Source: an uncultured Candidatus Saccharibacteria bacterium (GTDB lineage: Bacteria; Patescibacteriota; Minisyncoccia; Phycocordibacterales; UBA9973). From it: 64,000 nt of DNA. The DNA is taken from assembly GCA_964522195.1 (NCBI GenBank), contig CAZFSV010000002.1, positions 36,743 through 100,742 on the forward strand, read 5' to 3'. The notes beneath the pieces are model-generated. The model did not search any database and was not told the DNA's origin. It saw only the letters and a program-made list of their open reading frames with translations. Shown piece by piece: positions 2,559-58,974 of the stretch. The first letter of the stretch is position 1. The number at the start of each line of letters is the position of its first letter. Both the position numbers and the translations under genes were made by a program.

Positions 2559-3209
2559 TTGTATATAATTAAAGCTATGTTTGAAATAAAAGCCCAAAAA
2601 AGAGAATTAACAGAAAATTTAGATACTTTAAGAAAAGAAGGTTTGATGCCTGCTGTATTTTATGGAGCAGGAGAGTCAAATACTCCTATTTCTGTAAATG
2701 TTAATGAATTTAAAAAAGTCTGGAGAGACGCTGGAGAAAGTACTGCTATTAAAATTTCTTTAGCTGGTAAAACTTTAGATGCCTTGATTCAAGATGTTGG
2801 AGCAAATCCTGTTACAGGAGAGCCAATACATGCTGATTTTCTAATTATTGACGCTAAAAAAGAAGTTACTGTTTCTGTTCCTTTAGAATTTACTGGTGTT
2901 GCGCCAGCTTCAAAAGGTGGAATTGGTGTTTTGGTTAAAGTATTACATGAATTAGAAATTAGCGCATTGCCAAAAGATTTACCTCAAGAAATTACAGTTG
3001 ATTTATCTTCTTTAGTTGATTTAGATAGTGTTATCTTGGTAAAAGATATAAAAACTCCAAATGGTGTTACAATTAACACAAAAATGGAAGAAGTTGTGGC
3101 TTCTATTGCTCCAATGCAAGAAGAAAAAGAAGATACAGGTCCAGTAGACTTATCAAGTATTGAAGTAGAAAAGAAAGGTAAGAAAGAAGAAGAGTCTGTG
3201 GAAAATTAA
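2559..3209 (+). CDS. rplY: 50S ribosomal protein L25 / general stress protein Ctc
   Basis: MFEIKAQKRE...PAVFYG...IHADFL pattern of L25 with Ctc-type acidic C-terminal extension. True start may be the MFEIK Met at 2577. Confidence 0.85.
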   Translation: MYIIKAMFEIKAQKRELTENLDTLRKEGLMPAVFYGAGESNTPISVNVNEFKKVWRDAGESTAIKISLAGKTLDALIQDVGANPVTGEPIHADFLIIDAKKEVTVSVPLEFTGVAPASKGGIGVLVKVLHELEISALPKDLPQEITVDLSSLVDLDSVILVKDIKTPNGVTINTKMEEVVASIAPMQEEKEDTGPVDLSSIEVEKKGKKEEESVEN

Positions 3210-3236
3210 TTCTCTAAATATGATATAATAAGAACT

Positions 3237-4604
3237 ATGATTAGAAAAGTCATAGTTTTTATTTTTATATTTACATTTTTATATAGTTTTAATAGTAATA
3301 CAACTTATGCAATCGATTGTTTAAAAATTAATTCTTCTTCACCTCAATCCGAGAAAGATTTTTGCCGTGGAGAATTAGCTAAAATTGAAGCAGAATTAGC
3401 AGATCTACTTAAACAACAAGAAGCTCAAAAGAAAAATACTGGAACATTAACAGGGGATGTTAAGTATTTAAATAGTCAAATTAATGCTTTAAAAACAAAG
3501 GTAAAAGCTCGTTCTTTAGCTATTGCGCAGCTAAAAGCTTCTATTAATGAAAAAAGTTCAAAAATAGAAGATTTGTCTTCGAAAATTGAAACTCAGCATG
3601 AGTCTTTAGCTCAATTACTTAGAAATACCAATAATTTTGATGATAATAATTTAATTTATTTATTATTATCAAATCAAAATATTTCTGATTTTTATGCTGA
3701 TTTAGAGTCTTATTCTTCAATGAAAGAATCAATTAAGAAAACAGTAGATGAAATTAAGGGTGTTAAAACAGTAGTAGAAGAAGAAAAGAAAACTTTAGAA
3801 GAAAAAAGAGACGCTGAAAATGACGCTAAAGTAGAACTAGAGACTGCTCAAAAGAAGACCGCTGCCGCAGAAGCAGAAAAGAAAAAATTACTTTCTATTT
3901 CTAAACAAAAAGAAAGTGAATATCAAAAATTAGCTGCGGAGAAAAAAGCTCAAGCAGATAAAATTAGATCTGCTTTGTTCTCTCTTGCAGGTACAACACA
4001 AAGAATTGATTTCGGTACAGCTCTGTCTTATGCAAATGAAGCAAAAAGATTATTTAACATAGAACCAGCTTTTCTTTTAGCTATTTTTAGACAAGAAAGT
4101 AATTTAGGATCTAATGTTGGGCAATGTTTTATGACTGATCCTGCGACAGGTAATGGAGTTGGAGCTAATACAGGTGCGGCTCAAATTAGAGTAATGCATC
4201 CTACTCGTGATGTTCCTGTATTTATGAGTTTAACTGAAAGATTAGGTATAGATTCTTCTAAAACTAGAGTTTCTTGTTGGATTAAAGATTATAGAAATGG
4301 AGTACCTTTTGGTTGGGGTGGAGCTATGGGGCCTGCTCAGTTTATACCTTCTACCTGGAAAGGTTTTGAAACAAGACTTAAAAAGCTTTTAGGGTATGAA
4401 GCAAGTCCTTGGGTTGCAAAAGATGCTTTTATGGCTTCAGCTATGTATTTAACTGATTTAGGTGCCGTAGGAGAAAGTGATAGCGCTCAACAAAGAGCTG
4501 CTTGTAAGTATTATGGTAGTGGAGGGTCTAGTTGTGCTTATAGTCGAAGTGTTATGAACTTTAAAAACCAATATCAAAAAGATATTGAGTTGCTTTCTAA
4601 CTAA
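3237..4604 (+). CDS. Secreted coiled-coil protein with C-terminal MltB/SLT_2-like lytic transglycosylase domain
   Basis: Signal peptide and a long heptad-rich Q/K/E region. C-terminus carries LAIFRQESNLG and GAMGPAQFIPSTW motifs typical of the MltB-family (SLT_2) fold. Confidence 0.55.
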   Translation: MIRKVIVFIFIFTFLYSFNSNTTYAIDCLKINSSSPQSEKDFCRGELAKIEAELADLLKQQEAQKKNTGTLTGDVKYLNSQINALKTKVKARSLAIAQLKASINEKSSKIEDLSSKIETQHESLAQLLRNTNNFDDNNLIYLLLSNQNISDFYADLESYSSMKESIKKTVDEIKGVKTVVEEEKKTLEEKRDAENDAKVELETAQKKTAAAEAEKKKLLSISKQKESEYQKLAAEKKAQADKIRSALFSLAGTTQRIDFGTALSYANEAKRLFNIEPAFLLAIFRQESNLGSNVGQCFMTDPATGNGVGANTGAAQIRVMHPTRDVPVFMSLTERLGIDSSKTRVSCWIKDYRNGVPFGWGGAMGPAQFIPSTWKGFETRLKKLLGYEASPWVAKDAFMASAMYLTDLGAVGESDSAQQRAACKYYGSGGSSCAYSRSVMNFKNQYQKDIELLSN

Positions 4605-4943: not shown

Positions 4944-5915
4944 ATGGATTATAATTTAGAAGAATTAAAAAAAAATCACAATACTAATTATTTAGCAGAT
5001 GTTTTAGTACGTTTAGAAATTGCAGAAAAAGAAGTTAGAGAAATGCTTGAAAGTGATGATTCTTTACATGAACTAGCTGGAGAAGAGTTAAAAAAAATAC
5101 AAGAAGAAAGAGAATTAATTTTGAAACAAGTGGAAGATATTTTAGCTAAAGAGCTTGAAGAAGATGAATTTCCTAATGAAATAGTTTTAGAAGTTCGGGC
5201 TGGTGCTGGTGGAGACGAAGCAGCTTTGTTTGCTTGGGAGCTTGCTAATGCTTATGAGAAATACGCTGAAATAAAAGGTTGGTCTTGGAAAGTGAATTAT
5301 GAATCTAAAAATGATATTGGAGGATACAAAGAAGCTAGTTTTGAAATCAAAGGGAATGATGTTTATAAATTAATGCGTTATGAAACTGGCGTTCATAGAG
5401 TGCAAAGAGTTCCTGCTACTGAGAAAAATGGACGAGTACATACTTCTACTTGTTCTGTGGCAGTTTTGCCTATCAAAAAGAAAGTTACTTTTGAAATTAA
5501 TCCAGCTGAGTTTGAAATGGAATATTCTCGTTCTGGAGGAAAAGGAGGTCAGAATGTAAACAAAGTTGAAACAGCTGTTAGAATTATTCACATTCCAACA
5601 GGACTTGATGTTCGTTCAACCAATGAACGTTCTCAGGTTGCAAACCGCGAGAAAGCTATGATGATTTTAACTGCTAAATTACAAGCTTTAAAAGAAGAAG
5701 AAGAGGCAAAAAAATACGCAGGAGAGAGAAAGAATCAAATAGGTACAGGGGATAGAAGTGAGAAAATCCGAACTTATAATTTTCCTCAAGACAGAATCAC
5801 AGACCATCGTATTAAAAAAAGTTGGCATAATTTACCTAAGATAATGCTCGGAGAATTAGACCCTATTTTTGAAGCATTATTATCAGGCGAAACGGGTGAC
5901 GAGGACGAAGAATAA
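4944..5915 (+). CDS. prfA: Peptide chain release factor 1
   Basis: GGQ motif (SGGKGGQNVNKVETAVRIIH) and a PAT tripeptide (RF1-type, not the SPF of RF2). Confidence 0.9.
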   Translation: MDYNLEELKKNHNTNYLADVLVRLEIAEKEVREMLESDDSLHELAGEELKKIQEERELILKQVEDILAKELEEDEFPNEIVLEVRAGAGGDEAALFAWELANAYEKYAEIKGWSWKVNYESKNDIGGYKEASFEIKGNDVYKLMRYETGVHRVQRVPATEKNGRVHTSTCSVAVLPIKKKVTFEINPAEFEMEYSRSGGKGGQNVNKVETAVRIIHIPTGLDVRSTNERSQVANREKAMMILTAKLQALKEEEEAKKYAGERKNQIGTGDRSEKIRTYNFPQDRITDHRIKKSWHNLPKIMLGELDPIFEALLSGETGDEDEE

Positions 5916-15901: not shown

Positions 15902-16579
15902 ATGGGTAAATTTTACATTGTTGCAACTCCAATAGGAAATCTAAGTGATATTACTCTTAGGGCTTTAGAAGTTTTAAAAAGTGTAGATTTAATTCTTTGT
16001 GAAGATACTCGGGTTACTAAAAAGCTTTTAGATAAATATGAAATTAAAAATCAGACTATGAGTTATCACGCTCAGAGTAAGATTTCCAAATTAGATAAAA
16101 TTTTAGAATTACTCAAAGAAGGTAAGAACATCGCCTTGGTATCTGATGCGGGTACACCAGCTATTTCAGACCCTGGAATTATGCTTATAAAAGCTATTAA
16201 AGAGAGATTTCCAAGCGAAATAGTAATTATACCGATTCCAGGTCCTACAGCTCTAATAACAGCTTTAATCGCTTCAGGACTTGATACTAATGAATTTACT
16301 TTCTTAGGATTTTTGCCTCATAAAAAGGGTAGAGAGACCTTATTTAAAGAGATGAGTGAATCTAAAAGAACCATGATTTTTTATGAATCTCCACATAGAA
16401 TAATGAAGACCTTAGAAGCTTTAGTAAAATTCTGTCCAGATAAAAAAGTTTGTGTAGCGAGAGAGTTAACTAAAATCTACGAACAATTTGTCACTAATAC
16501 TCCTGAAAAAGTTTTGAAATATTTTGAAGAAAACCCTGATAAAGTTAGAGGCGAATTTGTAGTCTTGGTGGGGAAATAA
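15902..16579 (+). CDS. rsmI: 16S rRNA (cytidine1402-2'-O)-methyltransferase
   Basis: MGKFYIVATPIGNLSDITLRALEVL...LILCEDTR tetrapyrrole-methylase fold signature. The ATG at 15902 abuts the atpC stop. Confidence 0.85.
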   Translation: MGKFYIVATPIGNLSDITLRALEVLKSVDLILCEDTRVTKKLLDKYEIKNQTMSYHAQSKISKLDKILELLKEGKNIALVSDAGTPAISDPGIMLIKAIKERFPSEIVIIPIPGPTALITALIASGLDTNEFTFLGFLPHKKGRETLFKEMSESKRTMIFYESPHRIMKTLEALVKFCPDKKVCVARELTKIYEQFVTNTPEKVLKYFEENPDKVRGEFVVLVGK

Positions 16580-54481: not shown

Positions 54482-55072
54482 CTACGTGTTATTTTTATAA
54501 TATTTATTTTTAAATTTATCAAATAAATTTGTTAAATCATTTTCAATTTCAATTTTGCAAACAAAACAATCTTTTAACTTGGGTGTAATACCTTTTTTAA
54601 GAACACTTAGCGAAAGATCAAATTTATATTCACTTGTATGAACTCCATTTACTATTCTTTTAGTTAATTTTTCCCAATTTATATCTTGTTTTCTTGCAAT
54701 AAGGACATATAAATCATTTGGCGTAAAATCAAGAAAAATAAAAGCATCGTAATTTCTATTTTTAAAAAATTTTTCATGCTGAAATGTATCAGCCGACGCA
54801 CCTATTGTGGCTGTTTTAACTTCAATCTTTATGTCATCTACAACAATATCCCAATATTTATCATTATTAGTTATTGCTTTTTCATATTCAACTTTATATC
54901 TTCTTTTTGTAAAAATTTCATTTAAAAGCAACTCTCCCACTTCCCCAGTGTCATCATTATTTAATTTTTTTATATTCTCATATTTACCACCTTTTGCCCA
55001 ATTATTTTTCTTTTGTTTTCTATTTTCAGGAAGTGATATTAATATATTTTTTATAATTTCTTCTATTTTCAT
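54482..55072 (-). CDS. Putative type II restriction endonuclease (PD-(D/E)xK fold)
   Basis: WDIVVDDIKIEVKTA gives a D...(D/E)xK catalytic pattern. Immediately downstream of, and co-oriented with, a DNA MTase (4-nt gap). Confidence 0.5.
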   Translation of the reverse strand: MKIEEIIKNILISLPENRKQKKNNWAKGGKYENIKKLNNDDTGEVGELLLNEIFTKRRYKVEYEKAITNNDKYWDIVVDDIKIEVKTATIGASADTFQHEKFFKNRNYDAFIFLDFTPNDLYVLIARKQDINWEKLTKRIVNGVHTSEYKFDLSLSVLKKGITPKLKDCFVCKIEIENDLTNLFDKFKNKYYKNNT

Positions 55073-55075
55073 ATT

Positions 55076-56161
55076 TTAAAATAATTTATGATTAAAATCA
55101 TAGTAACCATTTTTAATTAAAACATCTTCAATTAAACTTGTACGTAAGTTTATTGCAGAGTTACTTGAATAAAAAGCTGTTTTTTCCCAATCATGATTTA
55201 ATAATAAATTCTTAATTTTTTCTTTATCTTTTAATATTACAATTCCATATCCTCTACGTTGAGGTAATTCTTCAAAAGAAAGGTATGGTTTTATGTCTTT
55301 ATAGGTTGTAGATGGCAAATAAATATCACATTTATAAAGCATATTTTTATTTCTTGTATTAGAAGGCAATCCTCCATCTGATAAAGAATAAATTTTTATA
55401 TACTGTAAACATGTTTTTCTTTCAGGGATCTTAATATTTTCTGTTTTTATTTTGGTCCACACTTGAAATATAGTATGAATTTTAATTTCCTCACCACTTG
55501 GATATATAAAAGAATTAGGAGGAATAATTTCTGAATATGCTAACTTGTAACCAAAAACTCTTTTTTTAGGAGATCCTTTACCGTCACTATTAAATAGTTG
55601 TGGCAATATAAAAGCAACAACATCAGCAAATTTGTAAGAATGATTAATGAATTGTAAAGCTAAATGACCTCTTAAGCCAAATGGAGGATTTCCCACAACA
55701 AAATATTTAAGATTTTTAGATGGAATCCATTTTAAATAATCATCTTTAATAATAGTTTTTGCTTTTGGGTCTATGTCTATGCCTATAGAGTTTTCTGGTA
55801 AAAATTTCAAAAAACTACCATTTCCAGCTGAAGGTTCAATATAAACATAATCTTTATCATCTATACCTAAATCAGTAATAATTTTTTTAAATTTTTTAAT
55901 ACAACCTAATGCAATATTTTCTTTAGTATAATATTGATCTTTTTCTTTTATAGAAAAATTATCTTCATATTTTACATTTAATAATCTTAAAAAATCTAAT
56001 TGATAATTTTTAGGTACTTTGTTTTGTTGGACCCATCTTTTTACAGTTCCTTTATGTATGCCAAAATGATTTGCTAATCTATCAAGAGTAAAAACATTTA
56101 AAGATTGCTCAAATAGCTGATTAATTTCAAAATTATTTATATTTGTGTTTGTATTTTTCAT
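55076..56161 (-). CDS. N6-adenine DNA methyltransferase, gamma class (M.TaqI-like), with N-terminal HTH extension
   Basis: Motif X DQYYT, motif I EPSAGNGSF, IGIDIDP, motif IV NPPF in M.TaqI order. N-terminal FTLDRLANHFGIHKGTVKRWV HTH. C-terminal target-recognition region. Confidence 0.75.
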   Translation of the reverse strand: MKNTNTNINNFEINQLFEQSLNVFTLDRLANHFGIHKGTVKRWVQQNKVPKNYQLDFLRLLNVKYEDNFSIKEKDQYYTKENIALGCIKKFKKIITDLGIDDKDYVYIEPSAGNGSFLKFLPENSIGIDIDPKAKTIIKDDYLKWIPSKNLKYFVVGNPPFGLRGHLALQFINHSYKFADVVAFILPQLFNSDGKGSPKKRVFGYKLAYSEIIPPNSFIYPSGEEIKIHTIFQVWTKIKTENIKIPERKTCLQYIKIYSLSDGGLPSNTRNKNMLYKCDIYLPSTTYKDIKPYLSFEELPQRRGYGIVILKDKEKIKNLLLNHDWEKTAFYSSNSAINLRTSLIEDVLIKNGYYDFNHKLF

Positions 56162-56344: not shown

Positions 56345-56599
56345 TTATTGTACACTATTTTCAATCCTTTTTCTTAATTGCGTAAAAGCTCGACTTCTTA
56401 ACTTTAAATTTGATTCTCTATGTCTTGCATCTTTCTCTGCTTTGTATGCTTCGTAATATACTAACTCAAGAGGTCGTCGAGCTTTTGTGGAAATAACTTT
56501 ACCATCGTTATGTTCTTTAAAACGTTTCCTTAGATCATTTGTTGACCCAGTATAAAATTGATTATCTTTTTTACTTTTTAGAATATAAATGTAAAACAT
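56345..56599 (-). CDS. GIY-YIG nuclease family protein (UPF0213-like, 84 aa)
   Basis: FYIYIL...YTGSTNDLRKRFKEH...E GIY-YIG core. The ORF sits exactly between two 15-bp perfect inverted repeats. Confidence 0.8.
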   Translation of the reverse strand: MFYIYILKSKKDNQFYTGSTNDLRKRFKEHNDGKVISTKARRPLELVYYEAYKAEKDARHRESNLKLRSRAFTQLRKRIENSVQ

Positions 56600-56894
56600 A
56601 ACTTATTTGGTGTGGGGGTAAAAATATTGCGAATCCGGAGAAGAATAAGAGTATTGGGCTCCAGGTTGTGGTTATTGCCCAGACTAATAACCCTACTCCT
56701 ATCAAGAGTCTCAATAGGCGGTCGCCTTTACCTATATTTTTACTACCGCGTCCTTCTTTTCCGACTATTGCATTCTTTGCTAATTTTTTTAGAATTGCTC
56801 GATATAAGAGTCCAAAAATCCCCGCAAGGAGATACATGGCGACGACGAGTCCCCAACCTGTTGTAAAAGTATTTATCATACTTGTATTATACAC
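56571..56894 (-). CDS. Small membrane protein, DUF2892/YgaP-like N-terminal motif
   Basis: NIGKGDRLLRLLIGVGLL resembles the DUF2892 start. Two or three TM helices. GC-enriched DNA leaves both strands open (spurious plus-strand ORFs). The 3' end overlaps the GIY-YIG start and runs through the inverted repeat. Confidence 0.4.
   Translation of the reverse strand: MYNTSMINTFTTGWGLVVAMYLLAGIFGLLYRAILKKLAKNAIVGKEGRGSKNIGKGDRLLRLLIGVGLLVWAITTTWSPILLFFSGFAIFLPPHQISYVLHLYSKK
56605..56619. repeat. Right 15-bp inverted repeat (reverse complement of ACCCCCACACCAAAT)
   Basis: 5 nt upstream of the GIY-YIG ATG on the minus strand. Confidence 0.7.
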
Positions 56895-56914
56895 TGAATC
56901 AAAGTATTAATCTT

Positions 56915-56941
56915 CTTGCGTTAGGTCTTGCCTAACGCAAG
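56915..56941. repeat. Palindromic 27-nt hairpin element copy 1 (cttgcgttagg-tcttg-cctaacgcaag)
   Basis: 11-bp perfect stem. Identical second copy at 57453-57479. Confidence 0.7.
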
Positions 56942-56955
56942 GGTTTAAATAATGT

Positions 56956-56984
56956 TTGACAAATTTAACTTAATATGATATGAT
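56956..56984 (+). promoter_or_regulatory. Candidate promoter TTGACA-17-TATGAT
   Basis: Perfect -35 consensus, 17-nt spacer. Lies just inside hairpin copy 1 and upstream of the small ORF. Confidence 0.4.
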
Positions 56985-57024
56985 ACTGATTGAGGATAAT
57001 GTTGTTCTCAAAAAATTTTATATT

Positions 57025-57264
57025 ATGCCAGCAGAATTATCAGCAGCAAGGGCGAATGAAATCGCCATGATTGTCTTACAAGACAAACTTGAAAATGATG
57101 GTGAATTATCTAGAGTAGTTCCCTCTGAAATCAAGAGACAGGTTCATAATGCGTCAAAAAAAATGGGCATTCCCCCAAAAGAGATTGCCGAATTCATGAA
57201 GCTAATGCTTCAAAAGATGCATACAAAAAACATTGCGGAGCTCGATAAGATAATTGGCTCCTAA
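57025..57264 (+). CDS. Small helical hypothetical protein (79 aa) in GC-enriched cassette
   Basis: ORF with its own promoter and terminator. About 40% GC versus about 29% background. No recognised domain. The ORF track's upstream Met (56980) would overlap the -10 box. Confidence 0.35.
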   Translation: MPAELSAARANEIAMIVLQDKLENDGELSRVVPSEIKRQVHNASKKMGIPPKEIAEFMKLMLQKMHTKNIAELDKIIGS

Positions 57265-57400
57265 ATCAATTCTTTCAGTCAAGGTTGAAGAGTATTCTTC
57301 ACTAAAGGGATAATTCCGATTTGTTATTAGTCGATCTGCTTTGCTGATCTATGCAAGATAAATCTAAGAGAATAAGAACCTAACCTCACTGAAAAAATTT

Positions 57401-57436
57401 GCCCCGTCGCCTAAAAACGACGGGGCTTTTTATTTT
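57401..57436 (+). terminator. Intrinsic terminator (gccccgtcg-cctaaaaa-cgacggggc plus T-run)
   Basis: 9-bp GC-rich stem followed by tttttattttt. Confidence 0.65.
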
Positions 57437-57452
57437 TCCTGTTACGTTAAAT

Positions 57453-57479
57453 CTTGCGTTAGGTCTTGCCTAACGCAAG
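57453..57479. repeat. Palindromic 27-nt hairpin element copy 2
   Basis: Identical to 56915-56941. Sits 3 nt downstream of the stop of minus-strand gene 57483-57911. Confidence 0.7.
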
Positions 57480-57482
57480 ACT

Positions 57483-57911
57483 TTATCTAAAACTACAAGT
57501 TAGTACACATTGCAACGTGCAGATTTGTGCGTCTTTGTCGTGTCTACATGCGGAGGCGCATCCATTCCATTCTCCACCTTTCGCTATACATTGATTTTCA
57601 CTAAAAGAATTAATCTCGCAGACTTTACTCTCTTCATACCAAGTACCTTTTTGAGACTCACAAGATAATTTTTTGTTATCTGGAGCTAGGGTGATTTTAT
57701 CGTTCTCTTTTTGTGGAGGAATATTTTCTGGTTTTATAATTTCTGGAGTTTGAATCTGATTATTATTTTCAGGAATTAAAATATTACTATCTAGTTCATT
57801 TGCTGAATAATCTTGTAATTTAGAATCAGAATTCTTAGCTACATTCAAAGCATAATATCCTCCTCCGACAAATATAATTCCTACCAAAACCCATATTGCT
57901 ATTTTTGACAT
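57483..57911 (-). CDS. Secreted/anchored cysteine-rich protein (10 Cys in C-terminal 60 aa)
   Basis: N-terminal signal-anchor, Pro/Asn/Glu-rich linker, Cys-rich C-terminal module. Confidence 0.45.
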   Translation of the reverse strand: MSKIAIWVLVGIIFVGGGYYALNVAKNSDSKLQDYSANELDSNILIPENNNQIQTPEIIKPENIPPQKENDKITLAPDNKKLSCESQKGTWYEESKVCEINSFSENQCIAKGGEWNGCASACRHDKDAQICTLQCVLTCSFR

Positions 57912-57942
57912 ATATTTTAATTTAATTAATTAATTTTTTAAT

Positions 57943-57963
57943 AATTTAGATTTATCAAAATAT
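57943..57963 (-). promoter_or_regulatory. Shared 21-nt upstream motif AATTTAGATTTATCAAAATAT, copy 1
   Basis: Identical 21-mer at 59840-59860, also upstream of a minus-strand gene. Confidence 0.35.
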
Positions 57964-58059
57964 TTTTCATAATTATTTTTTAAGATACTTAAATTATACC
58001 ATTCTATATTTGATTAATACAGCCGTACAAATACTTGAGTTTTTGTTATAATAAAAATT

Positions 58060-58974
58060 ATGATAAATGCATTTATGGTTTTGCTTCCAGTATTCGGTAT
58101 CATAGCTTTCGGCTATCTTCTGCATAGATATGATATTGTCAAAATAAAATTAGTTCATATATTAAACCTTTTTATCTATTATGTTTCATTACCAGCTCTG
58201 ATTATTAGTTTATTTTGGAATATAGAATTCACTAAGAGCACTCTCGGATTCTTCGGCTTTCATGCAGGACTCATAATTGTACTGAGTTTGATACTAATGC
58301 TAACACTCTCAATATTTAAAATAAATAGTAAAAACAAAATCGCTATAATGCTCGGGGTCATGGTCGGAAATACTGTGTATATGGGCTACCCAATACTAGG
58401 TGCTACTTACCCTGATTTCCCTATTGAAGTCGGTATTGGTGCGGGAGCTATACAACTAATCACTGGTTTGCTAATGGCAGTGTTATTCGTAGAATATATG
58501 ATACTGCGAACAAAGAAACTATCTACATACATACTAGACTTGGCTCGGAATCCGCTCGTTATCGCTTGTATATTGGGTGTGATACTAAGTTTGATACCAC
58601 ACAGTGAAGCTATGAATGCCGGATTTAAAGTTGTATCAGCCTTAGGACAAACAGCAAGTCCACTCGCTTTACTGACACTTGGATTCTTTATGAATAGACA
58701 TATCTCAAAAAAGAGTATCATGCTGGGAAGTATAGCAGTGATGGCGAAGCTCGTAATATTACCTATGGCGGTGTTCATTATATCTATACTGCTCGGTTAT
58801 AGCCGAGAGTTTATACAAGTATCAGTACTGATATCAGCAATGCCTACAGCGGTTACGAGTTTTATTCTCGCAGAGAAATATAACCTAGACGAAAATCTAT
58901 CCGCAGACATAATACTCGCAAGTACCATCTTCTCAATAATAAGCATACCTATTGTGGTGTGGTTGCTCGGATAA
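58060..58974 (+). CDS. AEC-family (auxin efflux carrier / malate permease-like) transporter
   Basis: 10-TM two-repeat topology. N-terminal LLPVFGIIAFGYLL typical of Mem_trans family. Confidence 0.65.
   Translation: MINAFMVLLPVFGIIAFGYLLHRYDIVKIKLVHILNLFIYYVSLPALIISLFWNIEFTKSTLGFFGFHAGLIIVLSLILMLTLSIFKINSKNKIAIMLGVMVGNTVYMGYPILGATYPDFPIEVGIGAGAIQLITGLLMAVLFVEYMILRTKKLSTYILDLARNPLVIACILGVILSLIPHSEAMNAGFKVVSALGQTASPLALLTLGFFMNRHISKKSIMLGSIAVMAKLVILPMAVFIISILLGYSREFIQVSVLISAMPTAVTSFILAEKYNLDENLSADIILASTIFSIISIPIVVWLLG

Follow-up and report, generated by a model that had tools for sequence, protein, structure and literature searches.

The locus and its bracketed module

The window is the whole stretch of DNA that was analysed, 64,000 nucleotides in length. 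Between its positions 56571 and 57911, two copies of a short palindromic hairpin enclose a small gene with its own promoter and terminator, and the genes on either side run in the opposite direction. The features, in order along the window, are the following.

56571 to 56879, minus strand: left neighbour, gene for a YgaP-like small membrane protein
56914 to 56941, no strand assigned: hairpin copy 1, REP-like, T+CTTGCGTTAGG-TCTTG-CCTAACGCAAG
56956 to 56984, plus strand: sigma-70-type promoter, TTGACA-17-TGaTATGAT
56990 to 57011, plus strand: hairpin of the 5'-UTR, TTGAGGATAATGTTGTTCTCAA
57026 to 57264, plus strand: 79-aa gene, coding for a small three-helix protein from a conserved family without a name
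57273 to 57400, plus strand: conserved non-coding element, a structured 3' UTR or a separate sRNA
57401 to 57436, no strand assigned: bidirectional intrinsic terminator, GCCCCGTCG...CGACGGGGC followed by a T-run
57452 to 57479, no strand assigned: hairpin copy 2, REP-like, sharing 28 identical nt and the loop orientation with copy 1
57483 to 57911, minus strand: right neighbour, gene for a Cys-rich protein of 142 aa with a membrane anchor at its N-terminus; its 3' UTR would contain hairpin 2

The exact 27-mer CTTGCGTTAGGTCTTGCCTAACGCAAG was found at 56915-56941 and at 57453-57479, as the sequence-only reading had reported when it described two identical 27-nt hairpins with an 11-bp stem. There was no third match in the 64-kb window with three mismatches allowed, and none in 100 shuffles. 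The identity between the copies covers 28 nt, i.e., the 27-mer plus one base on its 5' side, and the copies stand in direct orientation, 538 bp apart. Folded as single-stranded DNA, the hairpin has a perfect stem of 11-12 bp and a 5-nt loop, with an energy of -12.5 to -13 kcal/mol (z of about -7.7). A duplication longer than 28 nt was considered and rejected: the 3' flanks are similar at 7 of 11 positions, which is explicable by AT-richness and the weak T/A preference of the hairpin family. The idea of a DNA-uptake sequence was also rejected, as single hairpin arms are not over-represented in the window.

Both copies occupy narrow intergenic spaces. Copy 1 is placed between the start of the minus-strand YgaP-like gene, whose start codon is 36 nt from the hairpin, and the -35 box of the plus-strand promoter. 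Copy 2 lies 16 nt past the T-run of the terminator; on its other side, the convergent 142-aa gene has its stop codon at a distance of 3 nt. Around the bracketed module, free space is limited to a left gap between the start codon (56879) and the -35 box (56956) and a right gap between the end of the T-run (57436) and the stop codon (57483); each hairpin takes up most of its gap. A relative of about 93% identity, L129, has hairpin 2 in the corresponding position, altered by one substitution; its contig begins within that hairpin.

The near-consensus promoter, the 79-aa ORF and the strong terminator previously proposed between the copies were all located, and both neighbouring genes are indeed on the minus strand, opposite to the module. 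The promoter matches 11 of 12 consensus positions, carries a TG-extended -10 element and outranks every other site in the 6 kb scanned. It is followed by the 5'-UTR hairpin, whose counterpart in another genome (locus L136) reads TTAAGAATAATTTTGTTCTTAA, the paired changes keeping the stem. Gene callers start the ORF at the ATG at 56980 (94 aa), while homologues begin at the position of the ATG at 57026. The ORF is followed by about 135 nt of non-coding DNA and then by the terminator, whose stem (57401-57426) has 9-11 bp, 8 of them G-C pairs, and reads as a terminator on both strands.

The predicted structure of the 79-aa protein consists of three helices (pLDDT 89.9). A word-indexed search returned only the protein itself, whereas an exhaustive HMMER search found 48 representative clusters of homologues; this excludes an orphan or spurious ORF, and the gene is therefore real. 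The protein has no match in Pfam or NCBIfam, no significant match in the PDB and no significant match to a DNA-binding fold. It also matches no toxin or defence family, which leaves the toxin-like or anti-defence function once suggested for it without a counterpart in these searches.

The non-coding element downstream of the gene folds stably (z of -4.4), and 5 of its 19 predicted pairs show a compensatory change. Two single-stranded blocks, UAAAGGGRUAAUUCYG and AAGAGAAYAAGAACC, are invariant. Its core (57300-57400) matches the covariance model R1, which in about 0.87 Mb of CPR DNA finds the element only beside these small ORFs. No Rfam family matched the element at the gathering threshold or with E relaxed to 10, and the RNA motif has no match in IMG/VR. 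A long-range pairing of the 5' UTR with the 3' RNA was rejected, since the changes in L136 are not compensated.

The ORF has a GC content of 39.3% against 29.8% for the window, close to the figures of the sequence-only reading; the foreign composition deduced from them does not hold. The YgaP-like neighbour (38.5%) and a transporter gene (37%) are equally GC-rich, so composition does not mark the segment as foreign, and the 36.4% of the bracketed segment as first delimited is reached by 7.4% of stretches of the same size.

The module was found without hairpins in L132, L135, L136-138 and L140-142, and its gene neighbourhood differs between genomes. The 3' element also follows the homologues in L135, L139, L140, L141 and L142. 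In the alignment of the window with L136-138, identity amounts to 88% over the 69 nt of the promoter and the start of the 5'-UTR (window 56946-57014), to 68% of nucleotides and 58% of amino acids in the ORF, and to 95% over the 164 nt downstream (57273-57436, including the terminator); the non-coding parts of the module are thus better conserved than the ORF. The block of homology between the window and L136 spans 56946-57436 and ends 5 nt inward of hairpin 1 and 16 nt inward of hairpin 2. None of the approximately 145 other hairpin copies among the matches listed adjoins the module. Since its homologues occur without hairpins, the module is independent of them: it is a self-contained, conserved gene for a small protein and a structured RNA, and its conservation does not depend on the hairpins. 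With an unremarkable GC content, hairpin-free relatives and hairpins that elsewhere stand beside other sequences, the segment does not look like the inserted foreign cassette that had been proposed.

A hairpin family and its transposase in CPR/Patescibacteria

The exact 27-mer is present, once or more, in six other CPR genomes, labelled as Nomurabacteria (two), Paceibacterota, Minisyncoccia, Saccharibacteria and 'Patescibacteria group'. A scan with the core TGCGTTAGG-N5-CCTAACGCA, in which 18 nt were specified and the 5-nt loop was left free, found it in at least 120 metagenome contigs; in the viral contigs of IMG/VR there were zero matches to the core. As both the core and the RNA motif are missing there, a phage origin was rejected. 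The matches listed comprise 145 copies in 126 loci. Among these, the loop is TCTTG/CAAGA in 111 copies and CCTTG/CAAGG in a further 21, in a search that left it free. That an unpaired loop is conserved to this degree suggests that the sequence itself is recognised, and not the stem-loop shape alone. In the 121 distinct copies, weak conservation extends one or two base pairs beyond the core and no further; they share no flanking motif, no conserved GTAG/GTGG guide 5' of the hairpin foot and no T-run after the hairpin. The hairpins, too, match no Rfam family at the gathering threshold, nor with E relaxed to 10.

Most copies are extragenic, and only 20-23 of the 145 among the matches listed (about 15%) lie within long ORFs, where they are in frame. 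The density is low, about one copy per 30-50 kb; the window has two copies in 64 kb. Apart from one REPIN-like doublet of 41 nt in L084, the copies are mostly singlets. The 35 hairpin loci with a length of 9 kb or more (together 419 kb) contain nine extra copies, each of which adjoins a transposase gene. The outer bases usually differ between the copies of one genome (L003, L109). The hairpins of the window are thus members of a dispersed REP-like palindrome family that is widespread in CPR/Patescibacteria. Of the origins that the sequence-only reading had offered for them, REP-like elements is the one that agrees with this, the more so as related genomes carry the palindrome in physical linkage with a Y1 (RAYT-like) transposase. 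That reading had also named what would speak against its cassette, namely a dispersed motif untied to inserted genes and a bracketed segment conserved in relatives, and this is largely what was found.

About 30 of the 126 loci among the matches listed encode a 219-aa HUH/Y1 transposase directly beside the hairpin. These proteins are mostly 65-86% identical, with a range of 65-87% across CPR labels. With the Pfam model Y1_Tnp (cut-off 23), the 219-aa protein reaches 39.6 bits; its sole match in NCBIfam is REP_Tyr_transpos, at 41.3 bits and under the equivalog cut-off of 80. The HUH motif (H83-F84-H85) and the Y-x3-N residues (Y143 and N147) are invariant in the 17 aligned transposases. An asparagine four residues after the catalytic tyrosine (N119) is also the state of E. 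coli TnpA-REP (PMC6006769). Among proteins of solved structure, a sequence search gave only an insignificant match to ISDra2. More than 7,700 clusters of the transposase protein at 90% identity are attributed to Patescibacteria, and the sources name them 'transposase' or, once, 'REP element-mobilizing transposase RayT'.

The transposase unit usually has one hairpin on each side, the two being inverted (loops TCTTG and CAAGA) and 699 bp apart, as in L003, L010, L011, L040, L051, L080, L092, L109, L124 and others. Its order is constant: the TCTTG-loop hairpin, about 8 nt, a promoter-like box TTTGnTATTATATT, the gene and the CAAGA-loop hairpin, whose arm is formed by the last codons and the stop of the transposase (TTG CGT TAG). 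In L003, the two copies around the 219-aa ORF are followed by a third copy 766 bp further. Sequences outside the hairpins of the unit are unrelated between loci. A repeat that flanks a Y1 transposase gene is the arrangement by which REP/RAYT systems are defined (PMC3337134, PMC6006769). Within the 64-kb window, tblastn and a profile search in six frames found no transposase gene or remnant. From the arrangement in related loci, the hairpin is probably the cognate DNA of this RAYT-like HUH/Y1 transposase, which would catalyse its movement.

The copies inside genes give a view of how the hairpin spreads. Their hosts, called from recognisable motifs, include LeuRS, the NAD-dependent DNA ligase LigA, TruB, ArgRS and RsmI. 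All 20 intragenic copies examined are in the same frame and the same orientation and read C-V-R-Q-D-L-T-Q; the other open orientation was never seen among them. The RsmI orthologue of the window (15902-16531) shares 66% identity with the L055 protein and is without exactly the CVRQDLT segment, which identifies the intragenic copies as insertions. In the TruB genes of L052 and L103, a degenerate 'ARQDL' remnant stands next to an intact copy, suggesting that one site was struck repeatedly.

The orientation of the hairpin is biased with respect to transcription. The strand with the CAAGA loop is the sense strand of the locally dominant genes for 34 intergenic copies versus 13 (p = 0.003) and for 20 intragenic copies versus 0, and both window copies agree with the majority. 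Y1 transposases of the IS200/IS605 type act on the lagging-strand template (PMC6006769), and a strand bias is what such a mechanism predicts. The family bias also explains why the two window copies are direct and not inverted repeats.

Regulatory and terminator functions of the hairpins were considered as well. Twin operators for a dimeric regulator, possibly the 79-aa protein itself, which would co-regulate the locus, might be expected to have the perfect dyad symmetry of the hairpin and a position in a divergent promoter region such as that of copy 1. However, the loci of the 79-aa homologues are without hairpins, the hairpin occurs in unrelated contexts, coding sequence included, and the protein lacks a significant DNA-binding fold match, which makes operators very improbable.

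Another reading is that the hairpins are retained mainly for a host function, as a terminator or insulator or as a stabiliser of RNA 3' ends that shields the small gene from convergent or read-through transcription. Copy 2 follows a stop codon by 3 nt and passes a simple, lenient terminator scan, which copy 1 does not pass. In a crude ORF-based count, which considered open frames of 100 codons or more, 50 of 114 extragenic copies lie no more than 30 nt from a stop. Moreover, REPs have been co-opted in this way in other bacteria (PMC3337134). Against such a function, copy 1 is located upstream of both divergent promoters, so that it is probably not transcribed; a T-run is not conserved across the family; and a strong canonical bidirectional terminator already stands 26 nt away. 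Termination would also leave the conservation of the loop and the linkage to the transposase unexplained. We therefore regard a host function as quite improbable as the reason for the pair. Copy 2 is probably part of the 3' UTR of the mRNA of the 142-aa gene, where its stem-loop could slow 3' decay, and a role as terminator or insulator may accrue to it as a secondary effect.

Origin of the hairpin pair

The two hairpins of the window are probably copies of a REP-like element in the two intergenic gaps around a resident gene, and not the boundaries of an imported cassette. By analogy with IS200/IS605 elements and E. coli TnpA-REP, the transposase would act at replication forks, where it would recognise the hairpin folded in single-stranded DNA, nick it and rejoin the ends. 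New copies would land in a strand-specific manner and survive mainly where they are harmless, and two of them would have settled in the only two free gaps around the module; this order of events at the window locus is one that we infer. Copies filling the gaps around a resident module would thereby bracket it. Elsewhere in the family, single genes are tightly bracketed by two hairpins in L003, L031, L049, L092 and L109, with unrelated cargo and mostly inverted copies, which fits copies settling in successive intergenic gaps.

Some properties of the pair count against its origin from REP-like copies. A transposase-less pair 538 bp apart is unusual in the 419 kb of hairpin loci. The 28-nt identity includes outer bases that normally differ within one genome, and it hints at one event instead of two old independent insertions. 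Only 5 and 16 nt separate the hairpins from the ends of the conserved module. Furthermore, a guide tetranucleotide and a species-specific sequence are missing, the copies are mostly singlets and not REPIN doublets, the 64-kb window shows no transposase gene or remnant, and the transposase of the related loci stays under the RAYT equivalog cut-off of NCBIfam.

The first three of these properties suit a REP-bounded mobile cassette, in which the 538-bp unit (the module and one hairpin) moved as a whole. It might have arrived as a circle that recombined at a pre-existing chromosomal hairpin in Campbell fashion, leaving two identical direct copies; alternatively, the unit might be a non-autonomous IS200/IS605-like element of the 'PATE' type, with the hairpins as its left and right ends, mobilised in trans by the RAYT-like transposase. 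In either case, the direct orientation of two copies identical over 28 nt, their position just outside the conserved module and the absence of any other transposase-less pair in the 419 kb would be accounted for. Removal of the 538 bp leaves a tidy 66-nt intergenic region with one hairpin, the module is found in different neighbourhoods in different genomes, and the mosaic of a promoter and 3' RNA with 88-95% identity to L136 and an ORF with 68% could mean recent exchange.

However, no other copy of the module has adjacent hairpins, and about 145 other hairpins among the matches listed include none beside the module. Neither an empty site nor an excision product was found: the relatives at 81% and 63% identity are non-syntenic here, and look-ups of the exact proteins led to the same population, so that no empty or hairpin-less site at this locus was recovered. 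The 538-bp unit with its ends was found in this one genome and context only. The direct orientation is already expected from the strand bias of the family, and the unrelated cargo and mostly inverted copies of the bracketed genes elsewhere fit the filling of gaps. Movement of the unit as a cassette is thus considered unlikely, though an identical pair without a transposase remains unusual. Rather unlikely, too, is the wider proposition that REP hairpins of CPR capture and move genes, with the 538-bp unit as a RAYT-mobilisable or REP-recombined mini-cassette and, as its cargo, a small protein that evolves fast between a promoter and an RNA end of high conservation. If it were true, gene-moving hairpins would represent a new, integrase-free shuffling of single genes in ultra-small bacteria.

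Comparison with known systems

Palindromes at the boundaries of a small gene recall integron cassettes. An attC site is an imperfect palindrome of 57-141 bp with R''/L''-L'/R' boxes and extrahelical bases, its cassette is promoterless, and intI/attI are nearby. The hairpin of the window has none of these attC features, so the attC-like boundaries once proposed find no support: it is a perfect palindrome of 27 nt, without extrahelical bases or R/L box asymmetry, the bracketed gene has its own promoter, and no integrase was found among the 8 neighbouring ORFs scanned. In many other genomes the hairpin is single, intragenic or flanking a Y1 transposase gene. For sites of integron attC type, or of other tyrosine or serine recombinases, delimiting a gene cassette, there speak the bracketing of the segment by palindromes and a neighbouring 226-aa ORF with a sub-threshold match to Zn_ribbon_recom (E = 0.0027), but this ORF is also present in the relative L129, and such sites are hardly credible here.

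Palindromic elements of Rickettsia, a bacterium with a reduced genome, are about 100-150 bp long, and their in-frame insertions are tolerated in essential protein genes; no transposase is known for them. The in-frame CPR hairpins in LeuRS, LigA, TruB, ArgRS and RsmI are a parallel. In contrast, the CPR hairpin has only 23-29 nt, always reads CVRQDLTQ and has a cognate Y1 transposase.

IS200/IS605 elements and the transposase-less PATEs share with the CPR system a transposase of Y1 type, subterminal hairpins recognised on one strand and strand-biased insertion (PMC6006769). The two hairpins of the window, in the same orientation, bound the segment like left and right ends. Unlike such elements, however, the window unit contains neither tnpA nor tnpB, its ends are identical perfect palindromes instead of distinct left and right ends, and it is nowhere else seen as a repeated element.

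As far as we know, CPR/Patescibacteria, with their tiny streamlined genomes, are not noted for selfish repeats, and the literature searches gave nothing relevant that ties REP/RAYT elements or this hairpin sequence to them. Here, a hairpin is conserved to the base across lineages, tied to a very abundant Y1 transposase family and inserted strand-specifically. It offers a natural marker of single-strand transposition and of replication direction in uncultured bacteria; it may also cause breaks in assemblies and 'insertions' wrongly annotated in proteins, and together with the transposase it makes a protein-DNA pair that is amenable to biochemistry. With the bracketed module come a small-protein family absent from Pfam and a structured RNA absent from Rfam.

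The closest relatives are the REP/REPIN elements with their RAYTs, such as the E. coli REP/BIME 'REPtron' and the REPINs of Pseudomonas. In both, a short, dispersed hairpin palindrome is mostly extragenic, and an HUH/Y1 transposase with Y-x3-N is encoded by a gene flanked on both sides by the repeat, usually inverted (PMC3337134, PMC6006769); further CPR copies likewise cluster around the transposase gene. REPs carry a guide tetranucleotide, GTAG/GTGG, 5' of the hairpin foot (PMC6006769), whereas the CPR palindrome is perfect and without this guide. The CPR copies also differ in being mostly singlets at low density and in having the same 23-nt core and loop common to many CPR lineages, where REPs are species-specific and their RAYTs vertically inherited, and about 15% of the CPR copies lie in frame within genes. 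At 219 aa, the CPR transposase exceeds the RAYTs in length, its C-terminal extension terminates within the repeat, and its score remains below the NCBIfam cut-off for RAYTs; the transposase-flanking arrangement, absent within the 64-kb window, is present in related loci. Overall, the hairpin and its transposase in CPR are probably a variant of the known REP/RAYT kind, and the pair is likely to work as a REP does with its RAYT.

Hairpin copies inside essential genes and at the transposase

The REP-like hairpin also occurs in frame within essential genes, namely those for LeuRS, TruB, LigA, ArgRS and RsmI. The following are among the intragenic copies found in hairpin-bearing metagenome and CPR loci:

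L004:4365, intragenic hairpin copy
L005:6114, intragenic hairpin copy
L021:8985, intragenic hairpin copy
L050:6042, intragenic hairpin copy
L055:4582, intragenic hairpin copy
L122:9517, intragenic hairpin copy

Among the matches listed, every intragenic copy is read as CVRQDLTQ, and the second open orientation of the hairpin was found in none of them. Comparison with hairpin-bearing RsmI showed that the orthologue encoded in the window (15902-16531) is missing exactly the CVRQDLT segment. Judged from this sequence comparison, the in-gene copies are true insertions, because the window orthologue is without precisely that stretch.

At the RAYT-like transposase, the open reading frame ends in ...EWL(N/T/S)LR-stop in all transposase loci (alignment A1; for example L003:4082-4100), whereby the arm of the downstream hairpin provides the last codons, TTG CGT TAG. 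The transposase gene and the repeat therefore overlap physically. In one locus, L034, the transposase gene is present as two halves (3132-3569 and 5098-5316), broken at residue 73/74. The halves are encoded on different strands with 1.5 kb between them, and each is still adjoined by its own hairpin; this arrangement is apparently the outcome of an inversion that broke within the gene.

Conservation of the small-ORF module and its RNA elements

Conservation of the module bracketed by the two hairpins is mosaic. When the window (56946-57436) was compared with the homologous locus L136 (30-518), the promoter and the 3' RNA/terminator part were near-identical, while the coding middle had an amino-acid identity of only 58%. 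This pattern, as read from the alignment, suggests that either the small protein is evolving fast or the ends have been recombined. The features 3' of the small ORF and their matching stretches are as follows:

57273-57436, structured conserved non-coding element
57285-57314, TTGAAG-18-GATAAT, near the start of that element
L136:356-518, L135:250-352, L140:3256-3357 and L141:776-878, stretches matching the element

Between the window and L136, the 3' element is 95% identical in comparison with only 68% for the small ORF, and 5 of its 19 predicted pairs carry compensatory changes. No Rfam family matched it. Two readings fit the element, a 3' UTR and an independent sRNA; the TTGAAG-18-GATAAT sequence could be the element's own promoter. 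A different 5' leader (...TATAAT...GTTGATGAAATNTNAGTAATCAACCGG-hairpin...) is conserved among the more distant small-ORF homologues (L139:640-740, L140:2900-3000 and L141:413-513). Its stem changes preserve pairing, and it is a possible cis-regulatory RNA.

Genes on either side of the small ORF

The genes considered here are located in the window as follows:

54482-56161 (-), low-GC (24%) gene pair for 361-aa and 196-aa proteins
56345-56599 (-), gene for a stand-alone 84-aa GIY-YIG nuclease-domain protein
57483-58060, locus of the 142-aa gene

The 361-aa protein carries an HTH at its N-terminus as well as VVGNPPFG, a motif characteristic of N6-adenine methyltransferases; no family was matched by its 196-aa partner. 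The two may form a restriction-modification pair within a variable region. The GIY-YIG gene shares the last 29 nt of the YgaP-like gene, and the relative L130 has a similar small GIY-YIG gene within its variable region.

To the right, a 93% relative (L129:1-1825) carries a 261-aa form of the 142-aa gene, whereby about 490 bp correspond to about 130 bp of the window, and an additional 253-aa gene ahead of the transporter. Moreover, two contigs from the window's own population end at this locus. It is therefore a hotspot of variation between strains.

Degenerate and doubled hairpins

Partial degenerate copies adjoin intact hairpins in some loci: as 'ARQDL' remnants within TruB (L052:176 and L103:928), and as tandem CCTAACGCAA arm repeats 3' of the transposase (L071, L077 and L087). 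Such neighbors suggest that existing copies are sites of recurrent insertion or of slippage. Among the hairpin loci listed, the sole REPIN-like doublet is located at a contig edge (L084:135-198), its two hairpins being in inverted orientation with a start-to-start distance of 41 nt.
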